Shown piece after piece: positions 3,915-39,886 of a stretch of 40,949 nt of DNA (position 1 is the first letter of the stretch; each line of letters opens with the position of its first letter). Source of the stretch: Candidatus Hermodarchaeota archaeon (GTDB lineage Archaea; Asgardarchaeota; Lokiarchaeia; Sigyniarchaeales; SOKP01); contig JBHLLO010000026.1 in NCBI GenBank assembly GCA_048885535.1, positions 1-40,949 of the forward strand, read 5' to 3'. Below the pieces are notes generated by a model. The model ran no database searches, was not told where the DNA came from, and saw only the letters and a list, made by a program, of their open reading frames with translations. The position numbers and the translations under genes are program-made.

Positions 3915-3928
3915 TATATAAAGGAAAA
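3915..3928 (-). promoter_or_regulatory. T-rich-BRE promoter TTTTCC-TTTATATA
   Basis: Strict motif copy, divergent from the copy at 3958. Confidence 0.55.
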
Positions 3929-3957
3929 TTTTAGGTAAAAGTTTCCAAAATACAATT

Positions 3958-3971
3958 TTTTTCTTTAAATA
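3958..3971 (+). promoter_or_regulatory. T-rich-BRE promoter TTTTTC-TTTAAATA
   Basis: Strict motif copy upstream of ORF 4019. Confidence 0.6.
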
Positions 3972-4018
3972 TATTTGTCATAACTATTTCTTATCAACTC
4001 TATTACTAAAAAATAAGG

Positions 4019-5104
4019 TTGAAAATTATGCAAAAAGTTGAGGTTATTAGAAAATTATCGATAAGGATTGAAGATCGCTATGAAGAGATTTTAAAATATA
4101 TCCATATTGGGATTAGCATTCCGGTATTGCCAGAATTTCATAAATATATTATTAGTGATATTGAGGAATATAATGCTAAGTCTATTTTGCTTGAGGAAGA
4201 GATTGATGAAAAAGACTTTGGAAAACAAACCGATAATGTGGTTGGTCATGCCCTTGTATATGACGATGGAGGAGAGGTATTGTTCTTTGGATTCTTCAAT
4301 GTATATGATCATGATCCAAAGAAAATAGAATTGCTAGCTGATCAAGTTATAAACTATGCTGAACAAAATGACTTTAGTATTATAAGAGGTCCAATTAATG
4401 TACCTACGGTAATATTCGGATGGGGTTTTATGGTAGAGGGGAGTAGAAAAGACTTATTCATTGGTTCTCCCATAAATCCACCTATATATCAACATATCTT
4501 CATGCAGAAGGGATTTAGTGTGAAATTTCAAGAAGATAGATACTGGATGCCCGCTCTTAAGATGGATCCCCATAATAATCCTGCATTAGTTAAGAAAGGG
4601 GTGAACTTTGCAGAATATGAATACTCCAATCCAGGTAAAGAAGGATTAATGGCAATTAAAGATGAGTATATTGGATTACATGCAACTTATATGCCTGATT
4701 CGGCACGAATCACTCCTAAAGCTTCAAAAAACTTTGATAACATTGTAGATTTTACCCATACATTTGGTGCAAACTGGATGATGTGGATAGTACGCCATAA
4801 AGAATCAGGACAGATGGCAGGATGTGGTTACATTATCCCTGATGTATTTCATTTGAATCGAAAAGAACAACTCGACTCTGTAAGTTTTCATGATTGGGTT
4901 GTCCATCCTGATCATCGCAGAAAGTATTTGTCTATGCTAATGTATGGAGAAACTTCTCTTCTAGCCAAAGATCGAAAAACACCTCATTACATCAATAGAG
5001 GTTCGTGGCCAGTAGGAGCAGATAATATTGCAAATGCGAATGCTGCAATGAAGATGGGGGGAAGAAAGGATAGAAGTCATATAATCTTGGAAAAAGTAAT
5101 ATAA
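4019..5104 (+). CDS. Tandem GNAT-fold N-acyltransferase-like protein (start may be ATG 4028)
   Basis: FFGFF...IRGPIN...GF...NPPIY pattern of YghO-like GNATs; C-terminal VHPDHRRK acetyl-CoA-binding motif. Confidence 0.7.
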   Translation: MKIMQKVEVIRKLSIRIEDRYEEILKYIHIGISIPVLPEFHKYIISDIEEYNAKSILLEEEIDEKDFGKQTDNVVGHALVYDDGGEVLFFGFFNVYDHDPKKIELLADQVINYAEQNDFSIIRGPINVPTVIFGWGFMVEGSRKDLFIGSPINPPIYQHIFMQKGFSVKFQEDRYWMPALKMDPHNNPALVKKGVNFAEYEYSNPGKEGLMAIKDEYIGLHATYMPDSARITPKASKNFDNIVDFTHTFGANWMMWIVRHKESGQMAGCGYIIPDVFHLNRKEQLDSVSFHDWVVHPDHRRKYLSMLMYGETSLLAKDRKTPHYINRGSWPVGADNIANANAAMKMGGRKDRSHIILEKVI

Positions 5105-5123
5105 ACTTTTTTTTTAATTTTAT

Positions 5124-5483
5124 TTATTTTTCTTGCTTAGTTAAGAGCTTTTCATAAATCTTATCTATTCTTGTCCTAATTTCACTTAATATTTTATTTT
5201 TTTCATTAATTTCTTCTTGCAATTGTTTATGTAATTTTACTTTATTCCTTTTGTTCTCCAGATTAGCAAAAAATGGAAAGAAATTAAGAAGTTTATTAAC
5301 AGCGTTTTCTCCAAATTGTATGATTGCCTTTCTAAGGACTAGGTCTTCCACTTTCCCCTCTTTCACTTCTTTGATCAATGCTTTAAGCTTGAGCAATTCA
5401 TCCCCGTCCAACACAATTGAAACCAAATTATTTCTTAACTCTTTTTTATAATCAATTTTTTCACCATTAATTTCTAAGGTCAT
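5124..5483 (-). CDS. Small coiled-coil protein, last gene of the membrane operon
   Basis: 3-nt gap to the upstream gene; GAGGGA SD; heptad-rich C-terminus. Confidence 0.75.
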   Translation of the reverse strand: MTLEINGEKIDYKKELRNNLVSIVLDGDELLKLKALIKEVKEGKVEDLVLRKAIIQFGENAVNKLLNFFPFFANLENKRNKVKLHKQLQEEINEKNKILSEIRTRIDKIYEKLLTKQEK

Positions 5484-5486
5484 AAT

Positions 5487-8400
5487 TTAACTTCCCTCCT
5501 CTAATTCTAGGTATACTTTTAACTTAACATAAAAGTCCTGTAAACCTTGATATAAACTTTCGCTCTCTTGTTCTAAATCTCCTTTATCTAAATCTATATT
5601 ATTACTCTTTTTCAATAAATCATCTATTTCTTCTTGAGTAAAAGGGAACTGGTCTAAATTTGAGAGTATCGAGACGAACTGATTAACATCTTTATTAGTA
5701 ATAATATAACTTGGTTTATAGTAATCTTTATAGGTATTAGTCAAAAATTTTATTAAGAAGTATTTTGAGAGTTTTAAGCTATTGTAGTAATCTTTTCTTT
5801 TAAGATATTCATGAATGTTAAATAAATCCATAATGATATTACTTCCCAAATTCTTTGCTAAAAAATACCTTATTTTGTGTTCATTTTCAAGATTAATCAT
5901 TCTAATTGCAGGAGAATCTGATTCTTTTAAAACGATATCAACATCAAATCTGCTTAATTGTTGAGAGTCGTAGTAGTCCTTTAAAGCTTGCTCATAATAA
6001 ACCCCTACTGCGTAGGAGGTTCCGACTTGCTCTGAACCTCCTGCAGATCGAGGATGACTTTCAATAAGATATTGATGGTCGATCATAATTTTAAAGACTT
6101 TATCCCGAATTACTCTCATTTTCTTTTTATTTTGGGTATATTCATTTGATATTTTAGGACTTAAAAACTCCATTAAAATCTTCTTTACTTTATCAATAAA
6201 CAAGCCCCCTACTTTATCCACAGTTTTAATACTCTCGAAAAAATTAATGATTTCAGGTATAAATTTAGAATATTCCTCAAAATCCTTTTCAATTAGAGTC
6301 TTTTTTGCCTGTGCGAGGATACGTCTTTCACTATATACTAAATCATATCCTTGTCTTCCCATATGCTCTACGATGTCATGATAATCCATCGGAGGACACT
6401 CTATTAGGTCCTTATTATCTATTACTACTGGAAATGGTTGGTAAATATCAGCTCTTTTCATAAGTGCTTCATTGGTACGCATATTCCTTAAGTAAAGAAT
6501 TTGATATGTTTCTTTCCTTTTTGTATTATAGTATCCAGTACCATGTAACTCATTTAGATTCATCAAATTGGCTAAAATACTTGTATCTCTAACATCCACA
6601 CTTCTAAATGCCATGATGTTATTAATAAAAGTAAACACGTTTGAGTGAAGATAATGAATTTGGTTAGAAAGACAAATAAGACCAAACTTATTCTGGAGTA
6701 GGGGTTCAAAAAATTTATTGATTTTACTGAAGTCTCCAATTAAGTCAAGAAATTTTCCCTCAAAAATAATATCGATATGGGGGATAAACAGATATTTCGG
6801 TACAAATCGTGAATTATTCGAAATATAATGAATGAATTTAGAGAGGATTACAAATATAAAAAGGCATTGGGTTATTTTATCATTGTAATCTGACACATCA
6901 ACTATTATAGTTTGGGGACAAGTAATAAACTCATGAGCCTTAGTTCGCTTATCATCTGGAAGTGCAGTTGCCTGGAAAAATGCTAGATCATCTTGTGAAA
7001 AAACATGAAGGGATGATAAAAGGGACTCACTTTTAGCATCTTTTTCCCAAGGTTGTCTGCTATCAATATCAACTCTAATGTTATTAAGATCGACACTCTG
7101 GTATCGACGGATACTATTTTTAAACAAGTCCATTGCATGCTTATTGACCTTGAATGTTAATCCATAGGCATCAAACATATATTCTAAATAGTGAAGATTA
7201 TTCGGATCGTTTGGAATCGTTTCAGAATGAATAGGATCGAGCGTAAACGCTTTCCCCAGCTTAAAATATAAGATATTGTTTAAATATCTAGTATCTTTAA
7301 AATACGTTAATATTTTTGCCCAATTTCCTGTAGTATCAAAGATGATAGAGGGAATATCTTTTCTGATTAGTTCTGCTACAATTTTCATTGTGAAAACCTC
7401 TCGACTTTGAGGAATACCATTTGTAATTAGAAGTGATCGTAGTTGGTTTAGCGTAAATCCCGCATCCGCTTCAATTGTGAGAGTTTCTGTATTTACTGTA
7501 TTACCAAATATTATCTCACTTTTTAGATAAGTAGGAGTATTGAATTCTGCTGCGACTTGAACCTCGAGCCCCTTTTTAAGCTCATCTGCGATATGGATGA
7601 TAAATGCTAGAGTAAGTCCTTGAAAGTAAACTTCTCTCAGATAAGAACCATTAAGTCGGATATGATGATTCTTTAAAATTTGACAACTTATTCCTGAATA
7701 TAATAATTTATTTGCCAAAGACGCGAGTTTATAATTACTATAATTTGATTTAAAAGATTGAGAAAGAATGACACCTTCCTCATTAAGATGAGAAATAATT
7801 TCAGTAAATGCGTCAGTTGTTAAGTTCCTTACCTGTATTGTATGTGATGTCGAGAGCAAAATTATTGATTTCCATATTCCCGCTCTACGAGCAAGCCAAT
7901 TTTTCTCATTAATCTCTCTAGTTACATAAGTATTTAGCTCATAATTGGTTTTGTCATTCACATATTTAAAACATTCTTTATCAAATTGGGCAAAAGTACG
8001 TGGAGTTGAGATTACAGTATAAATAAAAGGAATTGGTTTGCTTTCAGGGGCATTTATTCCCGAATAAAATTTACTGAAAGAACAATAGGCAGGATCTGTT
8101 ACTTGATTTACATTAAAAATCATAGTTCCTGTCAATTCTTGGTCCTGTGTATGGGAAAAGAGTATATATGGTGTTTTATGAAAATAATAGAATTTAACAT
8201 CCCTAAATGGATTAATGATATTAACATTCTCATAAAAAAAGACATTGTGTTTCGTAATATGGAATAGTACATCTCTCCAATATAAGAAAAAGTTAGCAAC
8301 CAGTATTATTGCATTGATTAATACTATATATAAAAACATAATTCTAAATAAAGCAAAAGATACGTTGAGAAAAACAAATAATCCTAGTGTAAATAAACCT

Positions 8401-9212
8401 TTTATCAAGTAATCCTTTTTATTAGCCTTCAATATTGGTTGAAAATCACCAAGATTCTCAGGGAGTTCAATTTCTTTTTGCATGAAAGTAGAACGAAATG
8501 CACGAATCAATTCTTGTCCTGAGAGAATTTTTACTTTAAAGTGATGGAAATTAGCTCCAAAACTTGATTGAATTCTAGTTCTAAAAGTAAACAAGTCATT
8601 TCTTAGCTGGAGTATTTTTTGTTCACTCAGTATACCTGATATAGAACTGAACACTGAAAAATATATTGTAACTGGAAACACACCAGATCTTTGCTTTCTT
8701 TGGATCACTTGGAATGAGAAGGGAATAGTAGGTTCTACCGCGGAAAGGCTTCTTAAAAATTGAATAATATTTGCATGTACAGTTTCAGGAACTACTTCAA
8801 TCCTGAATAAAGTTAATCCCACGGTAAGAAGATCAACTTTGTTCGTATAGTATATTGTTTCAGAGTCATTACTAATAATCCAAAAGATAATATCTTTAAA
8901 TGGGTTTATTGATTGAAATTGAAATAGTCCTTTTAAGCGAAAAAAAGATTCCCGAAAAATCAAGGAAAAAATAATAATGAGGAGTATTGCAGATCCTAGC
9001 GCAACATAGATATTTTTACTAAGTAAGTACACACATATTGCAAACACAATCCCTATTATTACTAAATACACCGCCTTGAATATTGCAAAAATATTATTTG
9101 TATCACTATAAGAAGGATGAATATCCCAAATCATCTTAAAATCATCATTTTTATCTTGCTTCTCGGAGTCTTGTTCGTTTCCTTTTAGAAAGCTTGAATA
9201 AAGATCAACCAT
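5487..9212 (-). CDS. Membrane-anchored VirB4/HerA/FtsK-superfamily protein with duplicated N-terminal TM module and degenerate Walker motifs
   Basis: LLITNGIPQSRE at the Walker A position followed by IPSIIFDTTGNW, FTLDP, KFGLICLSNQ...INNIMAFR and LRNMRTNEAL, matching HerA/VirB4 motif order; two TM hairpins. Confidence 0.7.
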   Translation of the reverse strand: MVDLYSSFLKGNEQDSEKQDKNDDFKMIWDIHPSYSDTNNIFAIFKAVYLVIIGIVFAICVYLLSKNIYVALGSAILLIIIFSLIFRESFFRLKGLFQFQSINPFKDIIFWIISNDSETIYYTNKVDLLTVGLTLFRIEVVPETVHANIIQFLRSLSAVEPTIPFSFQVIQRKQRSGVFPVTIYFSVFSSISGILSEQKILQLRNDLFTFRTRIQSSFGANFHHFKVKILSGQELIRAFRSTFMQKEIELPENLGDFQPILKANKKDYLIKGLFTLGLFVFLNVSFALFRIMFLYIVLINAIILVANFFLYWRDVLFHITKHNVFFYENVNIINPFRDVKFYYFHKTPYILFSHTQDQELTGTMIFNVNQVTDPAYCSFSKFYSGINAPESKPIPFIYTVISTPRTFAQFDKECFKYVNDKTNYELNTYVTREINEKNWLARRAGIWKSIILLSTSHTIQVRNLTTDAFTEIISHLNEEGVILSQSFKSNYSNYKLASLANKLLYSGISCQILKNHHIRLNGSYLREVYFQGLTLAFIIHIADELKKGLEVQVAAEFNTPTYLKSEIIFGNTVNTETLTIEADAGFTLNQLRSLLITNGIPQSREVFTMKIVAELIRKDIPSIIFDTTGNWAKILTYFKDTRYLNNILYFKLGKAFTLDPIHSETIPNDPNNLHYLEYMFDAYGLTFKVNKHAMDLFKNSIRRYQSVDLNNIRVDIDSRQPWEKDAKSESLLSSLHVFSQDDLAFFQATALPDDKRTKAHEFITCPQTIIVDVSDYNDKITQCLFIFVILSKFIHYISNNSRFVPKYLFIPHIDIIFEGKFLDLIGDFSKINKFFEPLLQNKFGLICLSNQIHYLHSNVFTFINNIMAFRSVDVRDTSILANLMNLNELHGTGYYNTKRKETYQILYLRNMRTNEALMKRADIYQPFPVVIDNKDLIECPPMDYHDIVEHMGRQGYDLVYSERRILAQAKKTLIEKDFEEYSKFIPEIINFFESIKTVDKVGGLFIDKVKKILMEFLSPKISNEYTQNKKKMRVIRDKVFKIMIDHQYLIESHPRSAGGSEQVGTSYAVGVYYEQALKDYYDSQQLSRFDVDIVLKESDSPAIRMINLENEHKIRYFLAKNLGSNIIMDLFNIHEYLKRKDYYNSLKLSKYFLIKFLTNTYKDYYKPSYIITNKDVNQFVSILSNLDQFPFTQEEIDDLLKKSNNIDLDKGDLEQESESLYQGLQDFYVKLKVYLELEEGS

Positions 9213-12722: not shown

Positions 12723-12737
12723 TATATAAAGGAAAAA
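12723..12737 (-). promoter_or_regulatory. T-rich-BRE promoter TTTTTCC-TTTATATA for the membrane operon
   Basis: Strict motif; TATA ends 24 nt before ATG 12698. Confidence 0.7.
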
Positions 12738-12748
12738 TTTTGCGTATA

Positions 12749-12763
12749 TTTTTTCTTTAAATA
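12749..12763 (+). promoter_or_regulatory. T-rich-BRE promoter TTTTTTC-TTTAAATA for the Hel308 operon
   Basis: Strict motif, back-to-back with the copy at 12723. Confidence 0.7.
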
Positions 12764-12793: not shown

Positions 12794-13102
12794 ATGATCA
12801 TGGGTGTTGATGTTAGAAGCGAAAAGAATATGAAGCTTATAACTAGAAAATTTTTCAAATGTAAACATTGTAGTTTGTTAATCGAAATTGAACTAGATAG
12901 TAAGGTTTTAAAACAATTTGAAAAAAAAGATCAGTTTATTATTCCCCATCTTCATATTCATGGGAGCCCCTTACATGGAGTTCTCTGTCATTTTGACTTA
13001 AATGGAGATATACGAAATATAGAAGTGATAAAAAGCATTTCAATTTCAAGAGAATCAAATACGCTTCAGCAAATATTGGATAAATGGTCAAATTATTTTT
13101 AA
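12794..13102 (+). CDS. Small putative Zn-binding protein
   Basis: CKHC plus HLHIHGSPLH; GAGGT SD. Confidence 0.7.
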   Translation: MIMGVDVRSEKNMKLITRKFFKCKHCSLLIEIELDSKVLKQFEKKDQFIIPHLHIHGSPLHGVLCHFDLNGDIRNIEVIKSISISRESNTLQQILDKWSNYF

Positions 13103-15639
13103 AAGGAATACAGATGACTCTTAATAACTTTATTAAAGAAAAATTGAAAGGGTCTAGCCAACAGGACGAAGAGATCTTCAACTATATTTCCGATGAGCGA
13201 ATTCTTAGAGTATTATTTGAACAGAAAATTTTTCGTTTACGAGAAATTCAAAAAAAAGCCATCGAAAAAGGTTTATTTTTTCGAAAATCTTTCTTAATTT
13301 GTTCTCCCTCTGGAAGCGGAAAGACTCTAATAGGAGAAATATGCGCATTTCAAAACATATTTAACAACTACGGAAAGACAATCTACCTAGTTCCTTTTAA
13401 AGCCTTGGCTACCGAAAAATATTATTACTTCAAAAAGTATTATGACCGATTTAAAATTAAAATAGAACTATCTATCGGAGATTATGATGTGGATGATTCT
13501 GATTTGGAAAAAGCAGATTTGATTATCACTACTTATGAAAAGTGTGATTCTATTCTAAGAAATTTTTACGATAAAGAGTGGATTCATGGTATTTCTACAA
13601 TTATAATCGATGAAATACATATTATTGGAGAGCCTGATCGTGGTCCACGTTTGGAATCCCTAGTAGTACGGTTAAATGAATTCCTTCACCACCCCCAGAT
13701 AATTGGATTATCCGCTACAATTGCTAATCCTCAATTTTTTAATGAATGGTTAATTTCGTTAGGAAATGATACAATTTTAATAGAATCTGAGGATCGTCCC
13801 GTCCCTCTCCATTATCAAATTACTACGACTCAAAACAAAGATTCTACTATCAAAAAAATTGTGAAACAAACATTAGACCAAAAAGGGCAAGTATTAATAT
13901 TCTTGAACAAACGAAAATCCACGCAACAAACATCTTTTTCACTAAAAAATGTGGTTAAAAATCATATCGATGAAAGTGACCTGAATAAATGTAAAAAAAT
14001 CGAAAAAAAATTAGGAGAGATTAGAGGGGGACATAAGGATTTAAAGAAGATTGTGAAATACGGTCTTGCGTTCCATCATGCGGGATTATTACCAAAAGAG
14101 CGAAAGTTAATTGAAGATGGATTTCGAAAAAAAATGCTAAAAGTCATATGTGCAACAACCACACTTAGTGCTGGAATTAATACACCTTCACGAGTGGTTA
14201 TCCTTCGAGACTTTAAGAAATACATAACCTCTGGAAATAATATCAGAAATTTTTCTGGATATTATGAAAATGGTGATGGATTTTCTTATTTTAAACCTTT
14301 CTCTCCTAATCAAGTATTCCAAATGCTCGGTCGAGCAGGAAGACCAGGACTTGATTCAGTAGGTTATGGAATAATACTAGTAAATAATGTAGAAGAACGA
14401 AATTGGGTTGAAGACAACTATTTTCAAAATATACTAGTACAAAAAAAATTAATCCCGAAATACAATAATCTGCTTTCAGGTTTAAATAAAATACATACTC
14501 TTAAAGAACAGGTATTACTGAGAATCTATGAAGAGGGAAATATTACCCTTGAACAACTCAAGACCTATTTTGAACGAACATATTTTTGGTTTTTTATTAA
14601 ACATAAAATGAAAGAGCAAAAAATACCTATTGAGCAAATATTAATGATTCAAGAAATTAGTCCAGCAAATATTCTAAAACTTCATACTGATCCAATTAGA
14701 ATCCAACAATTAATAACAAAAAAATATCAAGTAAAAATCACCGAAATAAAGAATAATAGTATTGGAGGGCTTTTAAAGACTGAATTCGGAGTATTTACTT
14801 GCCGATTTGGTATTGATCGCGGAATTGAATGTACATGTGGTTTTAAAAATGGAATTTCAGATAATTTTACAAATGATGAATTTGCTTTTGAATTCTGTAA
14901 CCATATTACATATTTCTTGAAGTATTTAATTAATATTCCTTCACCGAATTTTCAAAAATATGTTTCAGATATCATACCAAAGTCAATAAAAAATCAGTAT
15001 ATTCTTAATTATTTATTTGAGAAAGGATTAATCGAGCGAAATAATGATAATACAGTAAAATGTAGCCAATTTGGAAAATTAATTATACGTTTGTATCTTT
15101 ATCCTATGTCTGGGGTGTTAATTCGATATAAGCTAGAAAACTGTCAACTACTAACCTCTCAAGATATTATTAAAGAAGCCTATGACGTTCTTAGAGCAGA
15201 ATATAAAGTAAGAAACTATAAAATGCTCCCCCCAATCTTGGAATGGACAGATGAAGTACCTATCGAAGAAATCTTAGAGCGCTATAATATTATGGCCGGT
15301 GATTTAAACTCAGTACGAGATAGTTTAGAACGCATAATAATTTTCATAGGAATTATTGCTATTCATTTAGGTGAGAATGAACTTAGAATTCAAGATAAAA
15401 TGGTCCAAGTAGCAGAGATGGCTGAAACACTTAAGATTCGAATACATTATGGAATAAAAGAAGAATTATTTGATCTGGTTTTACGTCTAAATAATGTAGC
15501 AAGAGTGAGAGCCCGAATTATCTATGATGCGGGATATCATACCGCTACCCAAGTACGGAAAGAAAGTCATTATATCTTACACCGCAAAACTGGATTAGGA
15601 GTAAATTTATGTAAAAAGATCATTGGAGATAAAAAATAA
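13084..15639 (+). CDS. Hel308/Ski2-like SF2 DNA helicase paralogue with inserted SWIM Zn finger (start may be ATG 13114)
   Basis: SPSGSGKT, DEIH, LSAT, FHHAGL, TLSAGINTP, QMLGRAGRP; C-terminal YGIKEEL...RVRAR HhH typical of Hel308; CTC-x18-CNH insertion. Confidence 0.9.
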   Translation: MVKLFLKGIQMTLNNFIKEKLKGSSQQDEEIFNYISDERILRVLFEQKIFRLREIQKKAIEKGLFFRKSFLICSPSGSGKTLIGEICAFQNIFNNYGKTIYLVPFKALATEKYYYFKKYYDRFKIKIELSIGDYDVDDSDLEKADLIITTYEKCDSILRNFYDKEWIHGISTIIIDEIHIIGEPDRGPRLESLVVRLNEFLHHPQIIGLSATIANPQFFNEWLISLGNDTILIESEDRPVPLHYQITTTQNKDSTIKKIVKQTLDQKGQVLIFLNKRKSTQQTSFSLKNVVKNHIDESDLNKCKKIEKKLGEIRGGHKDLKKIVKYGLAFHHAGLLPKERKLIEDGFRKKMLKVICATTTLSAGINTPSRVVILRDFKKYITSGNNIRNFSGYYENGDGFSYFKPFSPNQVFQMLGRAGRPGLDSVGYGIILVNNVEERNWVEDNYFQNILVQKKLIPKYNNLLSGLNKIHTLKEQVLLRIYEEGNITLEQLKTYFERTYFWFFIKHKMKEQKIPIEQILMIQEISPANILKLHTDPIRIQQLITKKYQVKITEIKNNSIGGLLKTEFGVFTCRFGIDRGIECTCGFKNGISDNFTNDEFAFEFCNHITYFLKYLINIPSPNFQKYVSDIIPKSIKNQYILNYLFEKGLIERNNDNTVKCSQFGKLIIRLYLYPMSGVLIRYKLENCQLLTSQDIIKEAYDVLRAEYKVRNYKMLPPILEWTDEVPIEEILERYNIMAGDLNSVRDSLERIIIFIGIIAIHLGENELRIQDKMVQVAEMAETLKIRIHYGIKEELFDLVLRLNNVARVRARIIYDAGYHTATQVRKESHYILHRKTGLGVNLCKKIIGDKK

Positions 15640-15957
15640 ATGAATAAAACAGAAAAACCTGAAGAAATTGAAGATTTTCCCTGGGAAAAATTTATTACAA
15701 GGAGAAGGGAAGAACCTGAAAAAGCTAAAATTCAAGAATTCATTGTATATCAAAAGCCAGGTCAAGAACCAAACGAATATGTCATTAAAAAATTTGATAA
15801 ATCAAAAGAACAGAATCTGGAAATATTAAATCTAATTAAAGAAATTCTTAATAATACAGCTAAACTTACACCAAGACAAATAATTGATTATTGTAATAGT
15901 CAAAGATATTTTATAAAACTCTATTTTAAACAATTGCAAGAAAAAAATAACTTATAA
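15640..15957 (+). CDS. Hypothetical protein
   Basis: ATG directly follows the helicase stop codon. Confidence 0.7.
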   Translation: MNKTEKPEEIEDFPWEKFITRRREEPEKAKIQEFIVYQKPGQEPNEYVIKKFDKSKEQNLEILNLIKEILNNTAKLTPRQIIDYCNSQRYFIKLYFKQLQEKNNL

Positions 15958-16071
15958 ATTAGTAAATTTTCAGTCTAATATCATTTTTCTATTAAATCCT
16001 TGATTACAAGACTAATTTTTTTTTTAAATTATACAAAAAACATGATTATTTAAAACAGTAGGGGATAGAGT

Positions 16072-16302
16072 ATGAGTTTAGAAATTATAGAAAATGAAGA
16101 GTATAATGAAAATAAAAAAGAAATTACTGATTTAGAATTAGAATACATATTAGCTAATGCATTTATTCCTTTTTCTATGTTCTTAGACAAAACAAGAGAA
16201 CCAGATATATATAATGGGAAAGAAAATATCCCTTTTGAAAAAAGACATCCTATATTTAGAGCTTTAATGCGAATCGAGTTTGAAAGTAGAAAAGAAGGCT
16301 AA
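16072..16302 (+). CDS. Small acidic hypothetical protein
   Basis: GGGGA SD; T-tract + TTTAAAT about 45 nt upstream. Confidence 0.6.
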   Translation: MSLEIIENEEYNENKKEITDLELEYILANAFIPFSMFLDKTREPDIYNGKENIPFEKRHPIFRALMRIEFESRKEG

Positions 16303-16529: not shown

Positions 16530-16629
16530 AGGCAACCTCAATCAATAAATTTAATTATCTTGAAGATCATCTAATACAGGAATATATAAATAAAAAATTT
16601 CAGATATCAAGATTTATTTTAACATAAAA

Positions 16630-16901: not shown

Positions 16902-16915
16902 TTTTTCTTTATAAA
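16902..16915 (+). promoter_or_regulatory. T-rich-BRE promoter TTTTTC-TTTATAAA
   Basis: Strict motif upstream of ORF 16964. Confidence 0.6.
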
Positions 16916-21480: not shown

Positions 21481-21495
21481 AATAAAAAGAAAAAA
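21481..21495 (-). promoter_or_regulatory. T-rich-BRE promoter variant TTTTTTC-TTTTTATT for the Hef operon
   Basis: Box ends 22 nt before ATG 21458 (leaderless spacing). Confidence 0.6.
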
Positions 21496-24293: not shown

Positions 24294-24308
24294 TATTTAA
24301 AGAAAAAA
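24294..24308 (-). promoter_or_regulatory. T-rich-BRE promoter TTTTTTC-TTTAAATA
   Basis: Strict motif upstream of ATG 24245. Confidence 0.6.
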
Positions 24309-25631: not shown

Positions 25632-25777
25632 AAATTTTCTTAATTACTAAGAAAATGAAGATGGGGAGTGGGCTTTTTAAATGTTACGGTTGGGATCGAA
25701 TTTTTTGGATAGAAAGCTTTTCCTCACAATGTAGAATTTTGCATATGAGCAAAAAAATGTGATTTTTGCATTCTGTC

Positions 25778-27861: not shown

Positions 27862-27876
27862 TTTTTCCTTTATAAG
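27862..27876 (+). promoter_or_regulatory. T-rich-BRE promoter TTTTTCC-TTTATAAG
   Basis: Strict motif; 21 nt before in-frame ATG 27898. Confidence 0.7.
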
Positions 27877-29015: not shown

Positions 29016-29720
29016 GTGCAACAAAACTTCTTTAGTGAGATATTATTATTAATTGAGCAAAATTGTATCATATCTATACATGGTAAATCAGGGACGGGAA
29101 AGACTTCTTTAGCATTACACCTTGTAGGATGGTTAATAACCAAACATAAACCTTATCAGGATCAATGTTTATGGATACAAGCTAGTGAATTCTTCCCTTC
29201 TAAAAGATTGAACCAAATTTTTAATGATAATGATGAAAAATTGCAATATATTCGAAACAATATATTTATAGCACCCTTTAAGTGTCCATTTCCATCTTAT
29301 AAGGAACAATTTGAATTCTTACTGGAGTTTAAGGTAAAAATCCTGCCTCCTGAATTAAGATATATTGTCATCGATAATATATCTCATCATCTCCGCTATG
29401 AACTTTCTATTTGCTCTACAATTAAGGAAAAGACAATGCTATTAAATTTGTTCTATCAGAGACAATTATTACCTTTAATAATTTTTTGCCAGAAGAGTGG
29501 CATTGTTCTTATTTTGATCCATGAGGTATCATATAACCCTCCATTAGGAAAAACCCTTCCCTTTTTTCATAAGTTATATGACCGAATAGAATGTATTGAG
29601 ATATATCTTCAAAATGAGTTCAATCAAAGACAACGATCACTCTCTATAAAATATTTGGATCTTCAAAAAAGGATTGAATACCAAATATTTAAGAAGGGAT
29701 TTCAATGGATACACCCTTAA
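29016..29720 (+). CDS. RadB/Rad51-paralogue-like RecA-fold ATPase (no N-terminal domain)
   Basis: GKSGTGKT, WIQASE.F...RL, IVIDNI, LIHEV. Confidence 0.8.
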   Translation: MQQNFFSEILLLIEQNCIISIHGKSGTGKTSLALHLVGWLITKHKPYQDQCLWIQASEFFPSKRLNQIFNDNDEKLQYIRNNIFIAPFKCPFPSYKEQFEFLLEFKVKILPPELRYIVIDNISHHLRYELSICSTIKEKTMLLNLFYQRQLLPLIIFCQKSGIVLILIHEVSYNPPLGKTLPFFHKLYDRIECIEIYLQNEFNQRQRSLSIKYLDLQKRIEYQIFKKGFQWIHP

Positions 29721-29762: not shown

Positions 29763-29776
29763 TTTTCCTTTAAATA
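29763..29776 (+). promoter_or_regulatory. T-rich-BRE promoter TTTTCC-TTTAAATA
   Basis: Strict motif; 20 nt before ATG 29797. Confidence 0.7.
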
Positions 29777-30732: not shown

Positions 30733-30747
30733 TTTTTTCTTTATAAA
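30733..30747 (+). promoter_or_regulatory. T-rich-BRE promoter TTTTTTC-TTTATAAA for radA
   Basis: Strict motif upstream of radA. Confidence 0.65.
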
Positions 30748-30789: not shown

Positions 30790-32040
30790 TTGAATGGAAA
30801 AATAGCTGATTTAAATCTTGTTAAAGGAATTAATGCTCGTCAGATCAAACTCCTCCAAGAAAACGGGATTAGCACTGCTGAAGCTTTAGCTATGTCTCCT
30901 CACAATTTTGTATCCGAAATTGATGGATTAGGAGATAAAACTGCGAAGAAGCTTATTTGGAATGCTCGAAACGCTTTAGGCATGACTGAATTTACCACTG
31001 CCGAAGAAATAGATGAGGATACCCAGTATATCAATACGGGATCATCCGAACTCAATCGAATCATGGGAGGTGGACTTCCCACAGGTAAACTCACTGAAGT
31101 GTTTGGACCATTTAAGTCAGGGAAGACCAATTTTGCTCACACAGTTGCAGTAACTGTTCAATTACCAGAAAAACAAGGTGGTCTTAATGGAGCTGTAGCT
31201 TATGTAGATTCCGAGAATACATTTTCAAAAGAAAAGATCAAGAGGATCGCACAGAGATTTGGGCTTGATCCTAAAAAAGTGTTATCTAGAATTCATCATG
31301 CAAGAATATATAGTTCCGATCACCAACAACAAATGATTGCAAAGGCAGAAGCTTTATGCAAAACTCGTGGAGTTAAATTGATTGTAATTGATAGTCTGAT
31401 GGCCCTTTTGCGAAATGAATATATCGGGATAGGGATGTTGGCAAGACGGCAAAATGTATTAAATAATATGATCCACGCACTGTCTCGAACTGCTGAGACC
31501 TATAATTCTGCCATTTTAGTTACTAATCAAGTTGCAACCAAAATGATGGGTATGTTCTCAGCTGAAGATGCAATTGGAGGGAATATTATTGCCCACGGAT
31601 GTCATATACGGATGATGTTCAAGACAAAAGGATTCTCTTCTAACACATCCCTCAAGAGAAGAGCAGTAATTGTAGATGCCCCAGATCTGCCACCTGAAGA
31701 GTGTGAGTTCTACATTACATCAGTTGGGATTGCTGATAATGAACAAACTGATAAGGTTGAAATGAAGCAAAAGGAATTTGATATTGAAACTTTATATGAG
31801 GAATCCAATAATGAGAAAGGAAGAGAATCACCTAACGATAAAAGTGAAAATAATGTTGATTTAACAAACATAAAAGGTATTGGAAAGGGTATTGCTGAAA
31901 ATCTAAAAAGTCATGGAATTTTAACAATAACTCAATTGATAGAGTCTGATCCTACTGAATTATCATCTAGGATAAGTGGCGTTTCGATTAAAAAAATAGA
32001 GGAATGGCAAGCCAGCGCACGAGCAATAAGTAAAACCTAA
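30790..32040 (+). CDS. radA: RadA/Rad51-family recombinase paralogue with extra C-terminal HhH domain
   Basis: N-terminal HhH, FTTA polymerisation motif, GPFKSGKT, DSENTF, VIDSL, TNQV, GGNIIAH, DAPDLP; tail DLTNIKGIG. Confidence 0.92.
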   Translation: MNGKIADLNLVKGINARQIKLLQENGISTAEALAMSPHNFVSEIDGLGDKTAKKLIWNARNALGMTEFTTAEEIDEDTQYINTGSSELNRIMGGGLPTGKLTEVFGPFKSGKTNFAHTVAVTVQLPEKQGGLNGAVAYVDSENTFSKEKIKRIAQRFGLDPKKVLSRIHHARIYSSDHQQQMIAKAEALCKTRGVKLIVIDSLMALLRNEYIGIGMLARRQNVLNNMIHALSRTAETYNSAILVTNQVATKMMGMFSAEDAIGGNIIAHGCHIRMMFKTKGFSSNTSLKRRAVIVDAPDLPPEECEFYITSVGIADNEQTDKVEMKQKEFDIETLYEESNNEKGRESPNDKSENNVDLTNIKGIGKGIAENLKSHGILTITQLIESDPTELSSRISGVSIKKIEEWQASARAISKT

Positions 32041-34229: not shown

Positions 34230-34244
34230 TATATAAAGAAAAAA
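34230..34244 (-). promoter_or_regulatory. T-rich-BRE promoter TTTTTTC-TTTATATA
   Basis: Strict motif upstream of ATG 34184. Confidence 0.65.
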
Positions 34245-34417: not shown

Positions 34418-34432
34418 TTTTTCATTTAAAAA
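34418..34432 (+). promoter_or_regulatory. T-rich-BRE promoter variant TTTTTCA-TTTAAAAA
   Basis: 21 nt before ATG 34454. Confidence 0.55.
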
Positions 34433-34453: not shown

Positions 34454-34678
34454 ATGGTTATATTTGATTATTTTGATGGGTTTTTAGCAGGTATAGATTT
34501 TTTAATCGCTTTAGGATCAATAATTGGTTTATTAGGAGTTATTGTTGGATTTATCTTTTTTATGTGTGGTAGCAACCGAATGCGAACTCGAATGTTAGGA
34601 GTTATTATTGTGTCTTTAATATTGCTTGCTATATGTGGTACACAAACAGGACTCAGATATTTTAGTATTTATCGCTAA
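34454..34678 (+). CDS. 74-aa two-TM hairpin protein, possibly VirB2/TrbC/CedA1-type pilin
   Basis: Gly-rich helix, short basic loop NRMRTR, second hydrophobic helix; pilin identity is inferred from size and pattern only. Confidence 0.65.
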   Translation: MVIFDYFDGFLAGIDFLIALGSIIGLLGVIVGFIFFMCGSNRMRTRMLGVIIVSLILLAICGTQTGLRYFSIYR

Positions 34679-35117: not shown

Positions 35118-35132
35118 TATTTAAAGGAAAAA
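35118..35132 (-). promoter_or_regulatory. T-rich-BRE promoter TTTTTCC-TTTAAATA
   Basis: Strict motif upstream of 35075. Confidence 0.65.
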
Positions 35133-35143: not shown

Positions 35144-35158
35144 TTTTTTGTTTAAATA
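35144..35158 (+). promoter_or_regulatory. T-rich-BRE promoter variant TTTTTTG-TTTAAATA
   Basis: Back-to-back with the copy at 35118; precedes two small ORFs. Confidence 0.55.
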
Positions 35159-36355: not shown

Positions 36356-36369
36356 TTTTTTTTTAAAAA
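36356..36369 (+). promoter_or_regulatory. T-rich-BRE promoter variant TTTTTT-TTTAAAAA
   Basis: 21 nt before ATG 36391. Confidence 0.5.
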
Positions 36370-36390
36370 GAAGTATAAAAAATCAAACCT

Positions 36391-37485
36391 ATGGGAGTAA
36401 AGTTAAAAGATATTATAATTCGGAATAATATAAAGGTTTCCGAATTAGCAGGAAGTATCATCGCTATTGATGCTCCGAATATCATAATGAGTCTATTTAA
36501 TTTCACGCGGAAAAACCCAGACGGAAGAAATGCAGGACTTCTTATGGATAAAACTCAGCGTCCTATATCTCATTTATACGGGTTACTCTATCGAATTAAC
36601 TTCCTTTATAGCAAGCTTATATTCCCGATATTTTGTTTCGATGGAAAAGATTCTGAATTAAAGCGGAAAATTCCTAATGATCAACTTAAGGATTTTCTTT
36701 TCATGCAGAAGTGGTATCGATCAACTATAGAATCAGGAGAAGTAGAGTTTGCTAAAGCTATTGCAGCTAATCGGGAATATCAATGGCAGACCATTATTAT
36801 GGAGTCGAAAGAATTATTGAATGCACTAGGAGTTCCGTATATTAATTCCCCTGCCTCAGCAGAATCTCAATGTGCTCAATTAGTTAAGGACCAGATTGTT
36901 CATTTTTCTAATTCTCAAGATTTTGATTCCTTGTTATTTGGATGTCCTCACTTGCTACAAAACCTCTCTAAAACATTGCGAAGAAAAATTCAGGGTAAGT
37001 GGATCTATCAAAGATTAACTCCTGTAAGAATTGATCTTGGTTTTAACTTAAAAAGTCTTGATATAAATCAATTTCAATTAGTAGATATGGCTATCTTGAT
37101 TGGATGTGATTATTTCCCTGGTATCAAAGGAATTGGTCCAAAAAAGGCACTAAATTTAATAAAGAAACATATTGGTCTAGAAGAAGTCATTTCCCAAGAA
37201 AAGGGTAAGTTTAATTTTGAAAACGTTACTCCTGAGTTAATGACTCGCGTAAGAAGAATTTTCTTACTTCCAGATGTATTTCAAGGTTATTCAGGAATAT
37301 CGTGGAACATGCCAAACGAATCTCTGGTCTATTCTTTCTTATGTGAAGCCCATTATTTAAATAGGGAACGAGTTCAAACTAATTTAAGGCGCTTAATTCA
37401 AAGCTATGAAAAGTGTAGGGCATATTTTATTAACCAAGACAGAATATCACCAAAATTACAGATGACTTTGGATCACTTTAGATAA
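36391..37485 (+). CDS. fen: FEN1/XPG-family flap endonuclease paralogue with PIP box
   Basis: MGVKL, IAIDA, SHLYG, FDGK, SQDFDSLLFG, GCDY.PGIKGIGPKKA, C-terminal QMTLDHF. Confidence 0.9.
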   Translation: MGVKLKDIIIRNNIKVSELAGSIIAIDAPNIIMSLFNFTRKNPDGRNAGLLMDKTQRPISHLYGLLYRINFLYSKLIFPIFCFDGKDSELKRKIPNDQLKDFLFMQKWYRSTIESGEVEFAKAIAANREYQWQTIIMESKELLNALGVPYINSPASAESQCAQLVKDQIVHFSNSQDFDSLLFGCPHLLQNLSKTLRRKIQGKWIYQRLTPVRIDLGFNLKSLDINQFQLVDMAILIGCDYFPGIKGIGPKKALNLIKKHIGLEEVISQEKGKFNFENVTPELMTRVRRIFLLPDVFQGYSGISWNMPNESLVYSFLCEAHYLNRERVQTNLRRLIQSYEKCRAYFINQDRISPKLQMTLDHFR

Positions 37486-37499
37486 TTTTTCTTTATAAA
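37486..37499 (+). promoter_or_regulatory. T-rich-BRE promoter TTTTTC-TTTATAAA
   Basis: Strict motif upstream of the 37554-RPA gene pair. Confidence 0.6.
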
Positions 37500-37553
37500 T
37501 GTCTATTTTACATTTTCAATAAAGAATAGAGCTATTCTTATACTCGATGAATT

Positions 37554-38183
37554 ATGACAGATACCTCTAAAAGTAAGGTATTGATGGTAACAAATATAGT
37601 TAAGAATAGGGGTATAATGGCAAGTGTATTAGAAAGCGCATTCATAAATTTTAGTTCAAAATCGGCTACTCTGAATTACATATTTCGAAATGTAGGTTTT
37701 ACAGATTCTCACGGTAATATAATCGTTTTTCCTGATTCTCTCATTAGAAAGGTATGCCGAGAGGTAAAAATCACAGGGGAAGTAGCAGATGGGATCATTA
37801 ATGAGTTTCTATTAAACACTCTATGCTTTAAAAGACTTCTGAATTGTAATACATTCACATGGAAGAATGATCTTTCAAAATTAAAGCGAAAGTTGAGGAT
37901 TTATTTACATAAAGCTTATTATATTGCTCCAGTTTTCAATTACAGGCGAGCGAGAATCAATAGTGAAATACTGATTAGCTTGATGCAAAAAAAGTTTTAT
38001 TTTCCACGATTTACCACTCAACTTGCCTTGGTAATATTTGTGACTGATGCAAATAATAAAAATAAGTTATTTGATACCCCTCTTCTTCAAAAGAATCTTC
38101 GAGCATTTTGTGATTGTTCTGCATTTGCATTTCATCGAGCTAGAAATAAACTAAGAATAAATAATCAGGGACACATTTTTTAA
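37554..38183 (+). CDS. Basic protein with C-terminal TFB-like cyclin fold/HTH
   Basis: QLALVIFV...PLLQKNLRAFCDCSAFAFHRARNKL resembles a TFB repeat (AAaLY...tQkeia..a.vs..tir). Confidence 0.6.
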   Translation: MTDTSKSKVLMVTNIVKNRGIMASVLESAFINFSSKSATLNYIFRNVGFTDSHGNIIVFPDSLIRKVCREVKITGEVADGIINEFLLNTLCFKRLLNCNTFTWKNDLSKLKRKLRIYLHKAYYIAPVFNYRRARINSEILISLMQKKFYFPRFTTQLALVIFVTDANNKNKLFDTPLLQKNLRAFCDCSAFAFHRARNKLRINNQGHIF

Positions 38184-38192
38184 TGATAAACT

Positions 38193-39122
38193 ATGAATTC
38201 CAAAGCTGAAGAGATATATCAAAGGTTATTAGATTCAGGAATTTCTGAAGAAGAGTTGGAACATAAAATTCAGAAAAAAGCACACGAATATTCTGGATTC
38301 ATGTCTAAACAAGGAATATTGTTTCTTATAGCTAAGGAATTTGGAATTGAATTTAATGAACCTGATACTGATTCTTCAATTTATGAAGAAATTGAGAATG
38401 GAATTGATTATGACGAATTTACCATTCCAATAGAAAAGGTGAGAGATGGAATGGTAAACATTGTTCTGTTAGCTAAAATCTTAAAACTATCCCCGATCCG
38501 GCAATTTATTCGAAAAGATGGTTCCCAAGGGGTTGTAAGTTCACTTATTGTTGGAGATAAATCAGGATTAATTAAAGTGGTTATTTGGAATGAAAAGGCA
38601 AATGCTATCAGGAGTAAATTTTTCAAAGAAGGGGAAATTATTCGTATTCTTGGTGATTATTCAAAAACCAACAAAGAAGGTGAGATTGAGGTCCATATTA
38701 GCAAAAGAGGAAAGATTATCCTAGCTCCTATAGATATTGACTCTATTACTAAACAAAACTTAGAGAAAATCAAACCTATGGATATAAAATCAGGTAAAAA
38801 ATTTTCCCAGAATCAGTTTATGATTAATGTATTGATTTCTAAGTATTCGTTTATTAAGAGAATACAAGGGCAAGTTTACATTGAAGAATTTAAAGAAATT
38901 ACTAAAAAAAATGGCGAAAAGACCTTTTTATTAAAATTCATTCTGCAAGATGATTCTGGTTATGTACGAGTAAACATTTGGGGCATGACTGCAGCAGAGA
39001 CTCTTAAGATCATTGAAGATGGAATACACATTAGAATAATAAATGTTATAGTTAAAAAAAATGACTTCACAAATGAAAAAGAGTTAGTCTTTACTAAAGC
39101 TTCTTCAATTGAAGTTATTTAG
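38193..39122 (+). CDS. RPA/SSB-like ssDNA-binding protein (helical N-domain + two OB folds)
   Basis: FIRKDG..G.V.SL.VGD.SG.IKVVIW and KKNGE.TF...LQDDSG.VRV.IWG. Confidence 0.85.
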   Translation: MNSKAEEIYQRLLDSGISEEELEHKIQKKAHEYSGFMSKQGILFLIAKEFGIEFNEPDTDSSIYEEIENGIDYDEFTIPIEKVRDGMVNIVLLAKILKLSPIRQFIRKDGSQGVVSSLIVGDKSGLIKVVIWNEKANAIRSKFFKEGEIIRILGDYSKTNKEGEIEVHISKRGKIILAPIDIDSITKQNLEKIKPMDIKSGKKFSQNQFMINVLISKYSFIKRIQGQVYIEEFKEITKKNGEKTFLLKFILQDDSGYVRVNIWGMTAAETLKIIEDGIHIRIINVIVKKNDFTNEKELVFTKASSIEVI

Positions 39123-39138
39123 AAGATAAAGAAAGAGA

Positions 39139-39153
39139 TTTTTTCTTTATATA
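39139..39153 (+). promoter_or_regulatory. T-rich-BRE promoter TTTTTTC-TTTATATA
   Basis: Strict motif; 21 nt before ATG 39175. Confidence 0.7.
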
Positions 39154-39174
39154 TAAATAGTAAATAAAGGGGGT

Positions 39175-39582
39175 ATGAGTGATTTGCACAAAAACAGTGG
39201 AACTCAGACAACAGAAGAGAGAAGCACTCGGTATTATAATGATTGGCTTGACGGTAAACGTGTAATTGCATGCTTCATTGATCAAGAGAACGATAACAAA
39301 TGGTACGATTACTATACAGGAGCAGAAGCTTCATGTATCAAAAAAGGAACTCTACTATTTGATAGTCAGTACAAAACCTACTATAAAATAAAGGAATTGT
39401 TCTTTACAATTGATGCTTCAGAGCTATATGTGTATGTGGAGCAAGTTCTTCAAGAAGATTTAGATATCTTGCGTATTAGGTATGATCTCACTCAAGGACC
39501 TGAATGGAAGAAGCAGGGTGAGAAGAATGTTTCTTCTCAAGTTGACTCAAAAGTTGACCAGTATAACTTGTATTATCTTTAG
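39175..39582 (+). CDS. Hypothetical protein
   Basis: Clean ORF with promoter at leaderless spacing. Confidence 0.75.
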   Translation: MSDLHKNSGTQTTEERSTRYYNDWLDGKRVIACFIDQENDNKWYDYYTGAEASCIKKGTLLFDSQYKTYYKIKELFFTIDASELYVYVEQVLQEDLDILRIRYDLTQGPEWKKQGEKNVSSQVDSKVDQYNLYYL

Positions 39583-39586
39583 AATA

Positions 39587-39769
39587 TTAGACATATATAA
39601 GCTTTACATCTTTAGCCATTTTTTTTGAGCGTATTTTCATTAGAATCTTCAAAATTAATTCTATCAGCTTATCTTCTGACATTTCATGGAGTTCTTCATC
39701 AGAGTTCTCTTTAAGTAGTTCTTGGTAAACTTGAGTTTCTTCTGCTAGAGTGAGCTTTAGCTTTTTAAT
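39587..39769 (-). CDS. Possible unannotated helical protein of about 60 aa (IKKLKLTLAEETQVYQELL...KDVKLIYV); start uncertain
   Basis: Open frame filling the gap, with no ATG/GTG/TTG at its 5' end. Confidence 0.35.
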   Translation of the reverse strand: MKKLKLTLAEETQVYQELLKENSDEELHEMSEDKLIELILKILMKIRSKKMAKDVKLIYV

Positions 39770-39871
39770 CCGTTGATTTCTGAAAAAACAAGGAATAATA
39801 AGGTCACTTCAAATAATTCTATTTTTTAATAAGAATATCTGCTATAAATGATTTATTTAGGTTGGTATAGA

Positions 39872-39886
39872 TTTTTTCTTTAAATA
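39872..39886 (+). promoter_or_regulatory. T-rich-BRE promoter TTTTTTC-TTTAAATA
   Basis: Strict motif upstream of the roadblock-GTPase pair. Confidence 0.65.

Follow-up and report, generated by a model that had tools for sequence, protein, structure and literature searches.

The window analysed here is the entire contig JBHLLO010000026.1 (40,949 bp; C26 of a 112-contig, 3.09-Mb genome, GCA_048885535.1) of a Candidatus Hermodarchaeota archaeon. It carries an accessory gene island, from about 3.9 kb to the contig end, in which genes are preceded by a recurrent promoter-like element composed of a T-tract and a TATA box. With a probability of roughly 0.55, this element represents a core-promoter class that is dedicated to the island and read by a divergent, TFB-like protein of the TFIIB family encoded within it (24378-25631, -), as part of a two-tier switch. 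In the first tier, the TFB-like gene would be transcribed from an ordinary purine-rich promoter that bears an ACTCC box; in the second, the TFB-like protein and TBP would bring RNA polymerase to the T-tract promoters. The element, TTTTYC followed by TTTAWA(WA), would drive about 20 transcription units of the island and essentially nothing else, so that the whole island may be switched on together, as by an alternative sigma factor. The output of the island is probably DNA transfer coupled to homologous recombination.

The T-tract element

The 12-mer core of the element, TTTTYCTTTAWA, has 14 exact matches in the window versus 0.43 expected from dinucleotide shuffles (standard deviation 0.70; maximum 3 in 100 shuffles), and 27 sites match it with at most one mismatch, versus 12.0 expected. 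The 14 exact sites all lie between genes, and at 13 of them an open reading frame (ORF) of at least 50 aa begins on the same strand within 150 nt downstream. The remaining one, at 3917-3928 (-), has no more than a 38-codon ORF in front of it (about 3835 down to 3719), as read by eye. The original prediction, which had been made from the letters of the window alone, listed six variants and 14 gene-facing copies, placed between genes or at gene boundaries. Each of these copies was recovered, with coordinates that differed by 0-2 nt, and every variant turned out to be a one-mismatch site.

When 126 exact sites of the window and of related loci are aligned, the motif grows to (A)T-TTTTYC-TTTAWA-TA. 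Here, the TATA half and the C of the T-tract are invariant, TTTAWA continues as TTTAWATA (T in 72% and A in 87% of the sites at the next two positions), and a purine is favoured 8 nt past the 12-mer (A 61%, G 31%), where conservation ends. Judged by its letters, the TATA half reads as a perfect archaeal TATA box, and the T-tract ending in C would occupy the six bases of the purine-rich B recognition element (BRE): at all sites, TTTTYC takes the six bases upstream of the TATA box in place of a purine-rich stretch. The TATA box faces a gene at a conserved spacing to the start codon, and we infer its position relative to the transcription start site (TSS). The T-tract sites are presumably promoters, with a TSS about 24 nt downstream. 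As had been predicted for interspersed genes, six non-motif promoters of the window instead have a purine- or A-rich run abutting the TATA box, a contrast that holds on small numbers (read by eye, n=6). These promoters belong to the acylase gene, ORF 3360, the TIR gene, the transglutaminase gene, ORF 36256 and the TFB-like gene.

At seven sites (exact 12725-, 27863+, 29763+ and 39140+; variants 21483-, 34419+ and 36356+), the end of the 12-mer lies 22-26 nt from the ATG, a distance that fits leaderless mRNAs if the TATA box is located about 26 nt upstream of the start. The number of such sites is that claimed initially, while their distance had been given as 20-24 nt. At the other sites, 32-58 nt separate the 12-mer from the start codon. 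Three pairs of sites are arranged divergently, back to back (3917-/3958+, 12725-/12750+ and 35120-/35145+).

Restriction of the element to the island

Genome-wide counts rely on gene calls by a crude longest-ORF caller rather than a trained gene finder, for a genome with an estimated completeness of 91.6% and contamination of 1.9%. The 12-mer occurs 107 times in this genome, and 14 of these copies are located on C26, which accounts for 1.3% of the DNA (binomial P 1.9e-10); the density is 0.342 per kb on this contig versus 0.0305 per kb elsewhere. For the 14-mer TTTTYCTTTAWAWA, C26 holds 13 of the 35 copies in the genome and 22 lie elsewhere, corresponding to a 44-fold higher density, while the reversed control of the 14-mer gives 0 copies on C26 and 23 elsewhere. 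Outside C26, 61 of the 93 copies of the 12-mer fall within ORFs. Exact promoter-like copies outside this contig number 8 versus 5 for the reversed control, an absence of excess that yields no extra regulon members, and promoter-like sites with at most one mismatch number 127 versus 112. The motif thus stays at background level outside C26, where most copies fall in coding sequences and it is not common upstream of housekeeping genes. All the refuting conditions of the original prediction that lent themselves to computation turned out in its favour. The proposed regulon, however, is confined to a single conserved accessory island (about 37 kb) instead of being spread over the genome.

A role as the general promoter of the genome was considered and rejected. 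An expectation-maximisation search in 2139 upstream regions outside C26 returned a fuzzy T-rich/A-rich profile of about 3 bits, TTTAWATA sites upstream of genes outside C26 have background flanks, and of the common 4-mers that precede TTTAWA there, TTTC has the smallest share of promoter-like sites (27/344). The upstream regions of 12 tRNA genes displayed no clear consensus. Likewise rejected was a mis-binned contig that carries a foreign general promoter, because the island of relatives is embedded in contigs of 169-343 kb, the remainder of which is at background motif density; the low contamination estimate is in line with this.

One of the eight exact promoter-like copies outside C26 deserves mention. 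An accessory 431-aa gene that is Mre11-like by its N-terminal motif (contig C11, 46291-47617) has an exact motif about 30 nt before its ATG. The motif is kept in two of five orthologues, and a search of 15 same-genus relatives recovered the gene itself in three.

Conservation in related genomes

Relatives of the RadA paralogue encoded in the island were found at 25 loci of Asgard metagenome-assembled genomes (60-81% identity, contigs up to 250 kb). The gene order around them is largely conserved, and the motif is present in 24 of the 25 loci. In five relatives, genome-wide motif counts remain near those of the reversed control (192/134, 75/86, 184/136, 163/149 and 131/119). Within single contigs the sites are clustered: a 169-kb contig of one relative holds eight matches at 118.6-157.5 kb and one in its first 118 kb, and in a 10-contig genome of another genus seven matches fall within 29 kb of a 343-kb contig. 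The latter genome has the same gene set in shuffled order, with promoters composed of the T-tract, one variable base and a TATA box.

A footprint of the motif was obtained from orthologues whose available upstream sequence spans 160 nt or more, in which the motif was sought at up to one mismatch within these 160 nt. It is present upstream of RadA in 23/23 cases (18 exact; spacing mostly 44-49 nt), the 127-aa Zn protein o29797 in 14/14, the unit of the 105-aa Zn protein o33867 in 18/18, the 121-aa membrane protein o34710 in 10/10 (all exact), the 209-aa ORF o37554 in 10/10, ORF 39936 in 11/11, the prenyltransferase o21915 in 7/7, o27880 in 8/8 and o20880 in 6/6. Lower fractions were obtained for the FEN1-like gene (13/16; spacing 23-27 nt) and the RPA-like gene (6/11), and genes internal to operons gave 0/6, 0/13, 0/5, 0/8, 0/5 and 1/8. 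The spacing is conserved inside each orthologue group and falls into two classes, of about 23 nt and about 44-58 nt. Taken by its sequence pattern, this footprint looks like that of promoters under selection. For the motif-less window genes that encode the TIR protein, TrmO, the transglutaminase, ORF 35474 and ORF 3360, no counterparts were found in the 25 loci; these non-syntenic genes look like later insertions.

A divergent TFIIB-family protein encoded in the island

The candidate reader of the T-tract promoters escapes routine annotation. It has no PF00382 match at E values up to 0.01, reaches 24 bits with the NCBIfam TFB model NF001658 (cut-off 384), and is matched by the Pfam Zn_Ribbon_TF model with an E value of 8.6e-4, under the cut-off. 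Its relationship to TFIIB nevertheless emerges from profiles and structure prediction. An hhalign comparison of a 40-homologue profile with six canonical TFBs of the genome gave a probability of 97.3% (E 2.6e-11, 259 columns) over an alignment that spans the Zn ribbon through both cyclin repeats. The Zn-ribbon cysteines C25, C28, C42 and C45 are invariant in the 40 homologues. For an AlphaFold model with a predicted local distance difference test score (pLDDT) of 70.8, the best Foldseek matches in the Protein Data Bank (PDB) are TFIIB, TFB, Brf1 and Brf2, with a template-modelling score of 0.65 for chain 1ais_B when normalised by target length. The identity to canonical TFBs is 13-20%.

One difference concerns the second cyclin fold, in which a helix close to the C-terminus would, by its position, be the BRE reader. 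In the island family, the putative helix reads [IV][RK]MST[IV][HQN]xQ[IV], versus VTE[VA]T[LIV]RxR in the canonical TFBs of the genome, and MST and Q are invariant across 40 sequences of 42-93% identity. After this helix follow about 90 further residues with predicted strands. From its sequence and model, the protein can be regarded as a divergent member of the TFIIB family with a changed putative DNA-reading helix. This much of the claimed TFB paralogue stands, while an ordinary paralogue it is not, as the Pfam TFIIB family is blind to it. A predicted complex of the TBP core and the TFB-like cyclin core scored 0.20 against a mark of 0.32 and counts neither for nor against binding.

A genome-wide PF00382 search yielded seven canonical two-cyclin TFB genes, none of them on C26. 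The same genome also holds one TFB fragment, one TBP gene (contig C106) and a 432-aa ORF with a single TBP repeat, and its complement of general factors is large.

Of 40 genomes sampled from one family, 30 were found to encode the TFB-like protein (five of eight sampled genera), as against 0 of 160 other sampled genomes of the phylum, and the viral contigs searched held no relatives. Four family genomes that lack the TFB-like gene (95-99% complete) are also devoid of the island RadA and have only two paralogues of 39-43% identity; their 14-mer counts are near the control (29/24, 40/34, 30/18 and 18/27). Among regions around TFB-like genes from five genera, 20 of 22 hold at least two YC-type 14-mers, versus an expectation of about 0.14 per 20 kb from the background rate of the window genome itself. 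Co-location and co-occurrence, together with the changed helix, suggest that the TFB-like protein reads the T-tract promoters. One sister-genus genome (G173) has four near-full-length TFB-like copies. The two copies whose surroundings were examined both adjoin a homologue of the 1241-aa HerA-like protein of the island, an arrangement that points to either a closer functional link between the two genes or a module that duplicates.

The promoter of the TFB-like gene

Among the syntenic genes of the island, the TFB-like gene is the only one without the motif. Within 160 nt upstream of its orthologues, the T-tract motif occurs in one of ten cases, at 139 nt. Instead, 23 distinct upstream regions from five genera have in common a purine-rich stretch that is followed by a TTTAAAA box, with an ACTCC box a few bases further downstream and GTGAT at the start. 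In the window, this promoter is located at 25632-25700 (-), with a purine-rich stretch, a TATA box and an ACTCC box. The combination of TATA and ACTCC has 14 matches genome-wide and is promoter-like only on C26 (25660-25700, -). By its sequence and position, the ACTCC box is likely the binding site of an upstream regulator, i.e. a control site. As the TFB-like promoter lies outside the motif class, the layout fits a cascade in which a signal would act at the ACTCC box, the factor would be made, and the island would be turned on.

A gene located past this promoter and ahead of the next T-tract operon (26046-27737, +) has a purine-rich promoter. Its 563-aa product carries a TIR domain at each end, and a weak TFIIB-type Zn ribbon lies between them. 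Over a stretch of 81 residues, the product matches a fragment on contig C87 at 90% identity. By its domains and setting, this looks like an inserted defence-type gene.

Alternative explanations

Several points weigh against recognition of the T-tract by the TFB-like protein. A search for RNA sequencing runs that contain this DNA listed none. The factor and the motif share an island that is gained or lost as a unit, and their co-occurrence is therefore partly trivial. Small Zn-ribbon proteins of the island could be the true T-tract binders, and any of the seven canonical TFBs could serve these promoters; the shape of a dA:dT tract is similar on either strand, so that a canonical TFB might tolerate the T-tract. 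The composition of C26 is atypical (rank 38 of 40 large contigs by tetranucleotide distance; GC content 0.310 versus a median of 0.301), which leaves room for a foreign origin with merely strong promoters. Covariation between helix and base, examined in genomes that are related and not independent, shows no consistent pattern. A C adjoins the TATA box in 39 of 43 sites with an H-type helix and in 50 of 62 with a Q-type helix, and in two helix-variant lineages this C is relaxed (4/11, 2/4 and 1/5 per genome), yet one genome with the same IQ variant keeps it in eight of nine sites. Moreover, a family genome without a detected TFB-like gene (G140) has three tandem exact motif promoters on a 10.9-kb contig. 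These promoters (contig C70, about 6.5-8.3 kb) face small Cys-rich (Zn) proteins of 74, 107 and 116 aa that lack similarity to island proteins, and they may represent another element that uses the same promoter class.

The first alternative, which we consider unlikely but not negligible, is that a separate sequence-specific activator or repressor reads the T-tract and its C, while a canonical TFB and TBP initiate. This reader could be a small Zn-ribbon protein of the island or a host factor, with the TFB-like protein otherwise employed or acting as a TFB3-like co-factor. Small Zn proteins of the island are indeed conserved and are preceded by the motif themselves (18/18 for o33867 and 14/14 for o29797), seven canonical TFBs are at hand, and the inconsistent covariation of helix and base fits such a scheme. 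A very similar hexanucleotide, the non-palindromic A(N)TTTC (ATTTTC at upsX), is described in the available text of PMC5817253 for Sulfolobales DNA-damage promoters, in which it accompanies weak BREs without the usual purines and a regulator has been proposed. There, however, the element is positioned at -44 to -39, upstream of the BRE (PMC5817253, as far as its available text goes), whereas the T-tract abuts the TATA box in fixed register at the position of the BRE itself, so that a normal BRE could not fit in next to an upstream activator site. Also against this alternative, the TFB-like protein retains the full TFIIB architecture with an invariant changed helix, and its gene is alone among the syntenic island genes in escaping the motif.

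It is improbable that no special factor is involved at all and that the island is an integrated mobile element, or the descendant of one, whose strong near-consensus TATA promoters are served by the TBP and TFB of the host. The T-tract would then be a shape element resembling an UP element, or a spacer kept by common descent. Such an origin would explain the patchy distribution (30/40 family genomes, with absence from one same-genus genome at 95% completeness), the genome with four TFB-like copies, the atypical composition with its many ORFans, and an ATPase resembling HerA, VirB4 and TrwB that is accompanied by membrane proteins, as is typical of conjugative elements. Yet neither an integrase nor a viral hallmark was detected in 30 ORFs scanned with Pfam, 0 of 10 ORFs matched PHROGs, and no tRNAs or Rfam families were found in the window. 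With no TFB-like relative in viral contigs either, a viral origin was rejected. The check for mobile-element borders covers C26, and the right border lies past the contig end. In addition, the gene set is kept across five genera, in shuffled order and inside contigs of 169-343 kb, and the inserted non-syntenic genes use purine-rich promoters. The consensus of 12-14 nt is held at orthologous promoters even where the proteins have diverged down to 30-60% identity, which needs selection for specific recognition.

Oligo-T runs terminate archaeal transcription, and the repeats might accordingly be terminators, insulators, or recombination or replication sites rather than promoters, but this is very improbable given that three divergent pairs have no same-strand upstream gene to terminate, that the sites always face a gene in two conserved spacing classes with an invariant C and TATA half, and that the arrangement was not found elsewhere in the genome.

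Transcription units and gene content of the island

To the left of the island, positions 1-3700 hold penicillin-acylase-like and carbamate-kinase-like genes, which were named from their translations and not by Pfam, as well as ORF 3360; all have purine-rich promoters without the motif. The exact site at 3958-3969 (+) precedes a 361-aa ORF (4019-5104). Its neighbour at 12725-12736 (-) is located 26 nt from the ATG of an operon (12698 down to 5124) for a membrane protein with a helix-hairpin-helix (HhH) domain, two further membrane proteins, the 1241-aa HerA/VirB4-like protein and a 119-aa ORF. In the opposite direction, the site at 12750-12761 (+) serves 12794-13102, a Hel308-like helicase (13084-15639) and 15640-15957. 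Two one-mismatch variants follow, the first (16017-16028, +) before a 76-aa ORF (16072-16302) and the second (16585-16596, -) without an assigned target gene. A GNAT-like 408-aa ORF (16964-18190) lies behind the exact site at 16902-16913 (+). On the minus strand, a variant at 21483-21494 (-), kept in 6/6 orthologues at up to one mismatch, is found 24 nt from the ATG of an operon (21458 down to 18222) that encodes a 192-aa ORF, a Hef-like helicase and a DUF1922 protein, and an exact site at 24296-24307 (-) precedes a 776-aa prenyltransferase-toroid protein (21915-24245). Next to it lies the TFB-like gene, the product of which combines the Zn ribbon, two cyclin folds, the changed C-terminal helix and the extension of about 90 aa.

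In the right half, the site at 27863-27874 (+) is located 23 nt before the ATG at 27898 of a unit for a membrane protein, a 115-aa ORF and a RadB-like protein (29016-29720). It is followed by sites for the 127-aa Zn protein (29763-29774, +; 22 nt from the ATG) and for the RadA paralogue 30790-32040 (30734-30745, +). The site at 34232-34243 (-) serves the 105-aa Zn protein and a 337-aa protein, and a variant at 34419-34430 (+) lies 23 nt from a 74-aa ORF (34454-34678). An exact site for the 121-aa membrane protein (35120-35131, -) has a variant as its divergent partner (35145-35156, +), which was not assigned a target. The FEN1/XPG-like gene (36391-37485) begins 23 nt behind the variant at 36356-36367 (+). 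The last exact sites precede the 209-aa ORF and an RPA-like OB-fold protein 38193-39122 (37486-37497, +), a 135-aa ORF (39140-39151, +; 23 nt from the ATG), and a 177-aa ORF (39936-40469) with an ORF from 40456 to the contig end (39873-39884, +). Reading of the translations suggests a roadblock-like protein for the 177-aa ORF, for which Pfam and NCBIfam gave no matches, and a small GTPase for the ORF from 40456.

According to Pfam and NCBIfam, the proteins of C26 include a RadA that carries an additional HhH domain at its C-terminus, a small RadB/Rad51-like protein, the Hel308-like helicase and a Hef-like helicase for which the Hef model matched over the helicase part only. These are joined by the FEN1/XPG-like nuclease, the RPA-like OB-fold protein, the prenyltransferase-toroid protein and the GNAT-like protein. 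The HhH membrane protein has 650 aa, and many ORFs of the contig have no assigned family. Most of the identified proteins score under the curated equivalog cut-offs of NCBIfam. More ordinary copies are encoded elsewhere in the genome, at identities of 41% and 39% for RadA, 36% for FEN1, 43% and 38% for Hef, 30% for RPA and 32% for Hel308, and the island genes are therefore divergent extra paralogues.

The 1241-aa protein (5487-9212, -) has hydrophobic stretches at its N-terminus and shares its operon with two membrane proteins and the HhH protein. No PDB sequence matches were found for it, and its 120 listed homologues have no Pfam family, save PF11977 on two. A model of residues 520-1000, built from 26 sequences with a pLDDT of 71.4 and a predicted template-modelling score of 0.73, was placed by Foldseek in the PDB with HerA (E 4e-10), TrwB and VirB4, in agreement with an earlier lead from a language model. 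By eye, the P-loop position (residues about 595-610) lacks the usual Gly-Lys-Ser/Thr, and the surrounding residues are invariant in 26 homologues; to judge from these residues, the ATPase may be non-canonical or inactive.

Together, these assignments allow a more far-reaching but tentative proposal, to which we give rather less than even odds, namely a sigma-like master switch of the TFIIB family with T-tract specificity that controls a DNA exchange and recombination module in one Asgard family. The module would comprise a membrane HerA/VirB4-type translocase, an HhH DNA receptor, a dedicated RadA, a RadB-like protein, and Hel308, Hef, FEN1/XPG-like and RPA paralogues.

Relation to known systems

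Bacterial alternative sigma factors, such as those of competence and sporulation, combine a dedicated factor and a distinct consensus with a factor gene under another promoter, i.e. a cascade. On this comparison, the island likewise has one candidate factor, one consensus and the layout of a cascade, while the protein family and the polymerase are unrelated and TATA and TBP are presumably still used. With eukaryotic Brf1 and Brf2, the island factor has the TFIIB fold, the presence of a C-terminal extension and a putative dedicated promoter class in common, and Brf chains are among its Foldseek matches. Archaea, however, have one RNA polymerase, and an evolutionary link would be speculation.

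In the DNA-damage response of the Sulfolobales, the regulator Orc1-2 reportedly binds the A(N)TTTC hexanucleotide. The DNA importer Ced of these organisms includes CedB, a HerA/VirB4-type ATPase. Orc1-2 is presented as a key regulator of this response in the available text of PMC6061795, and the targets of the response include the Ups pili and Ced, according to the accessible parts of PMC6101594, PMC6061795, PMC11868833 and PMC9905601. Ced consists of the membrane proteins CedA, CedA1 and CedA2 in addition to CedB (PMC11868833, available text). The likeness lies in a TFB paralogue, TFB3, tied to a stress-type set of DNA-transfer and repair genes (PMC6101594 and PMC11868833, in the text at hand) and in a T-rich hexanucleotide of very similar sequence that ends in C within the promoters. 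In contrast to the island, the Sulfolobales element is described as lying upstream of a separate BRE, while in the island the T-rich element takes the place of the BRE, directly against the TATA box. Also, TFB3 lacks a DNA-binding domain according to the accessible text of PMC5817253, whereas the island factor is full length with both cyclin folds and the C-terminal helix. Finally, the putative regulon of the island forms one physical block of paralogous recombination genes.

TFB2 of Sulfolobus acidocaldarius, a full-length TFIIB paralogue that drives a cell-cycle regulon, occupies and activates a defined set of promoters and is itself under separate control (bioRxiv 10.64898/2026.09.06.749720, available portion); the island factor would resemble it in this. 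In the same portion of that source, the promoters of TFB2 and those of TFB1 are nearly identical in their TATA boxes and similar in their BREs, with the BRE-TATA spacing as the only difference. In the island, by contrast, the BRE position holds a sequence of another class, and the factor has diverged much further. As far as the available texts of these sources go, documented TFB paralogues thus either share the same or nearly the same BRE (TFB2) or are without DNA binding (TFB3).

We file the island as a general-factor-paralogue regulon that stands outside every named system. A literature search, supplements not covered, returned no descriptions of the T-tract promoter, the TFB-like family or the island. 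If the proposed recognition holds, the TFB-like protein would be without precedent among archaeal general-factor paralogues in having a categorically different BRE, and promoter sequence could divide up the archaeal/eukaryotic initiation system in the manner of bacterial sigma factors. Promoter-class-specific TFIIB-like factors and a recombination toolkit under separate regulation would then also have a precedent among prokaryotes, namely in those most closely related to eukaryotes. The case is a clean one, with about 20 near-identical promoters, background elsewhere, occurrence in five genera and a regulator gene outside its own regulon. The cargo points to a separately switched programme of recombination and DNA transfer, which bears on DNA exchange among Asgard archaea. 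In a lineage that has so far been genetically intractable, the system is directly testable with the factor and TBP on the 14-bp element.

Other promoter-proximal elements in the genome

Two further groups of genes in this genome have upstream sequences of their own kind. All four histone-fold genes (contigs C18, C12, C25 and C49) have an identical strong Shine-Dalgarno-like leader immediately before the ATG, which indicates that leadered and leaderless genes exist side by side in the genome. Two thermosome genes share a near-identical upstream element of about 45 nt, and a third carries its apparent reverse complement (C19, about 6100-6190; C22, about 3820-3910; C10, about 21920-22010); this element may be the site of a heat-shock regulator.

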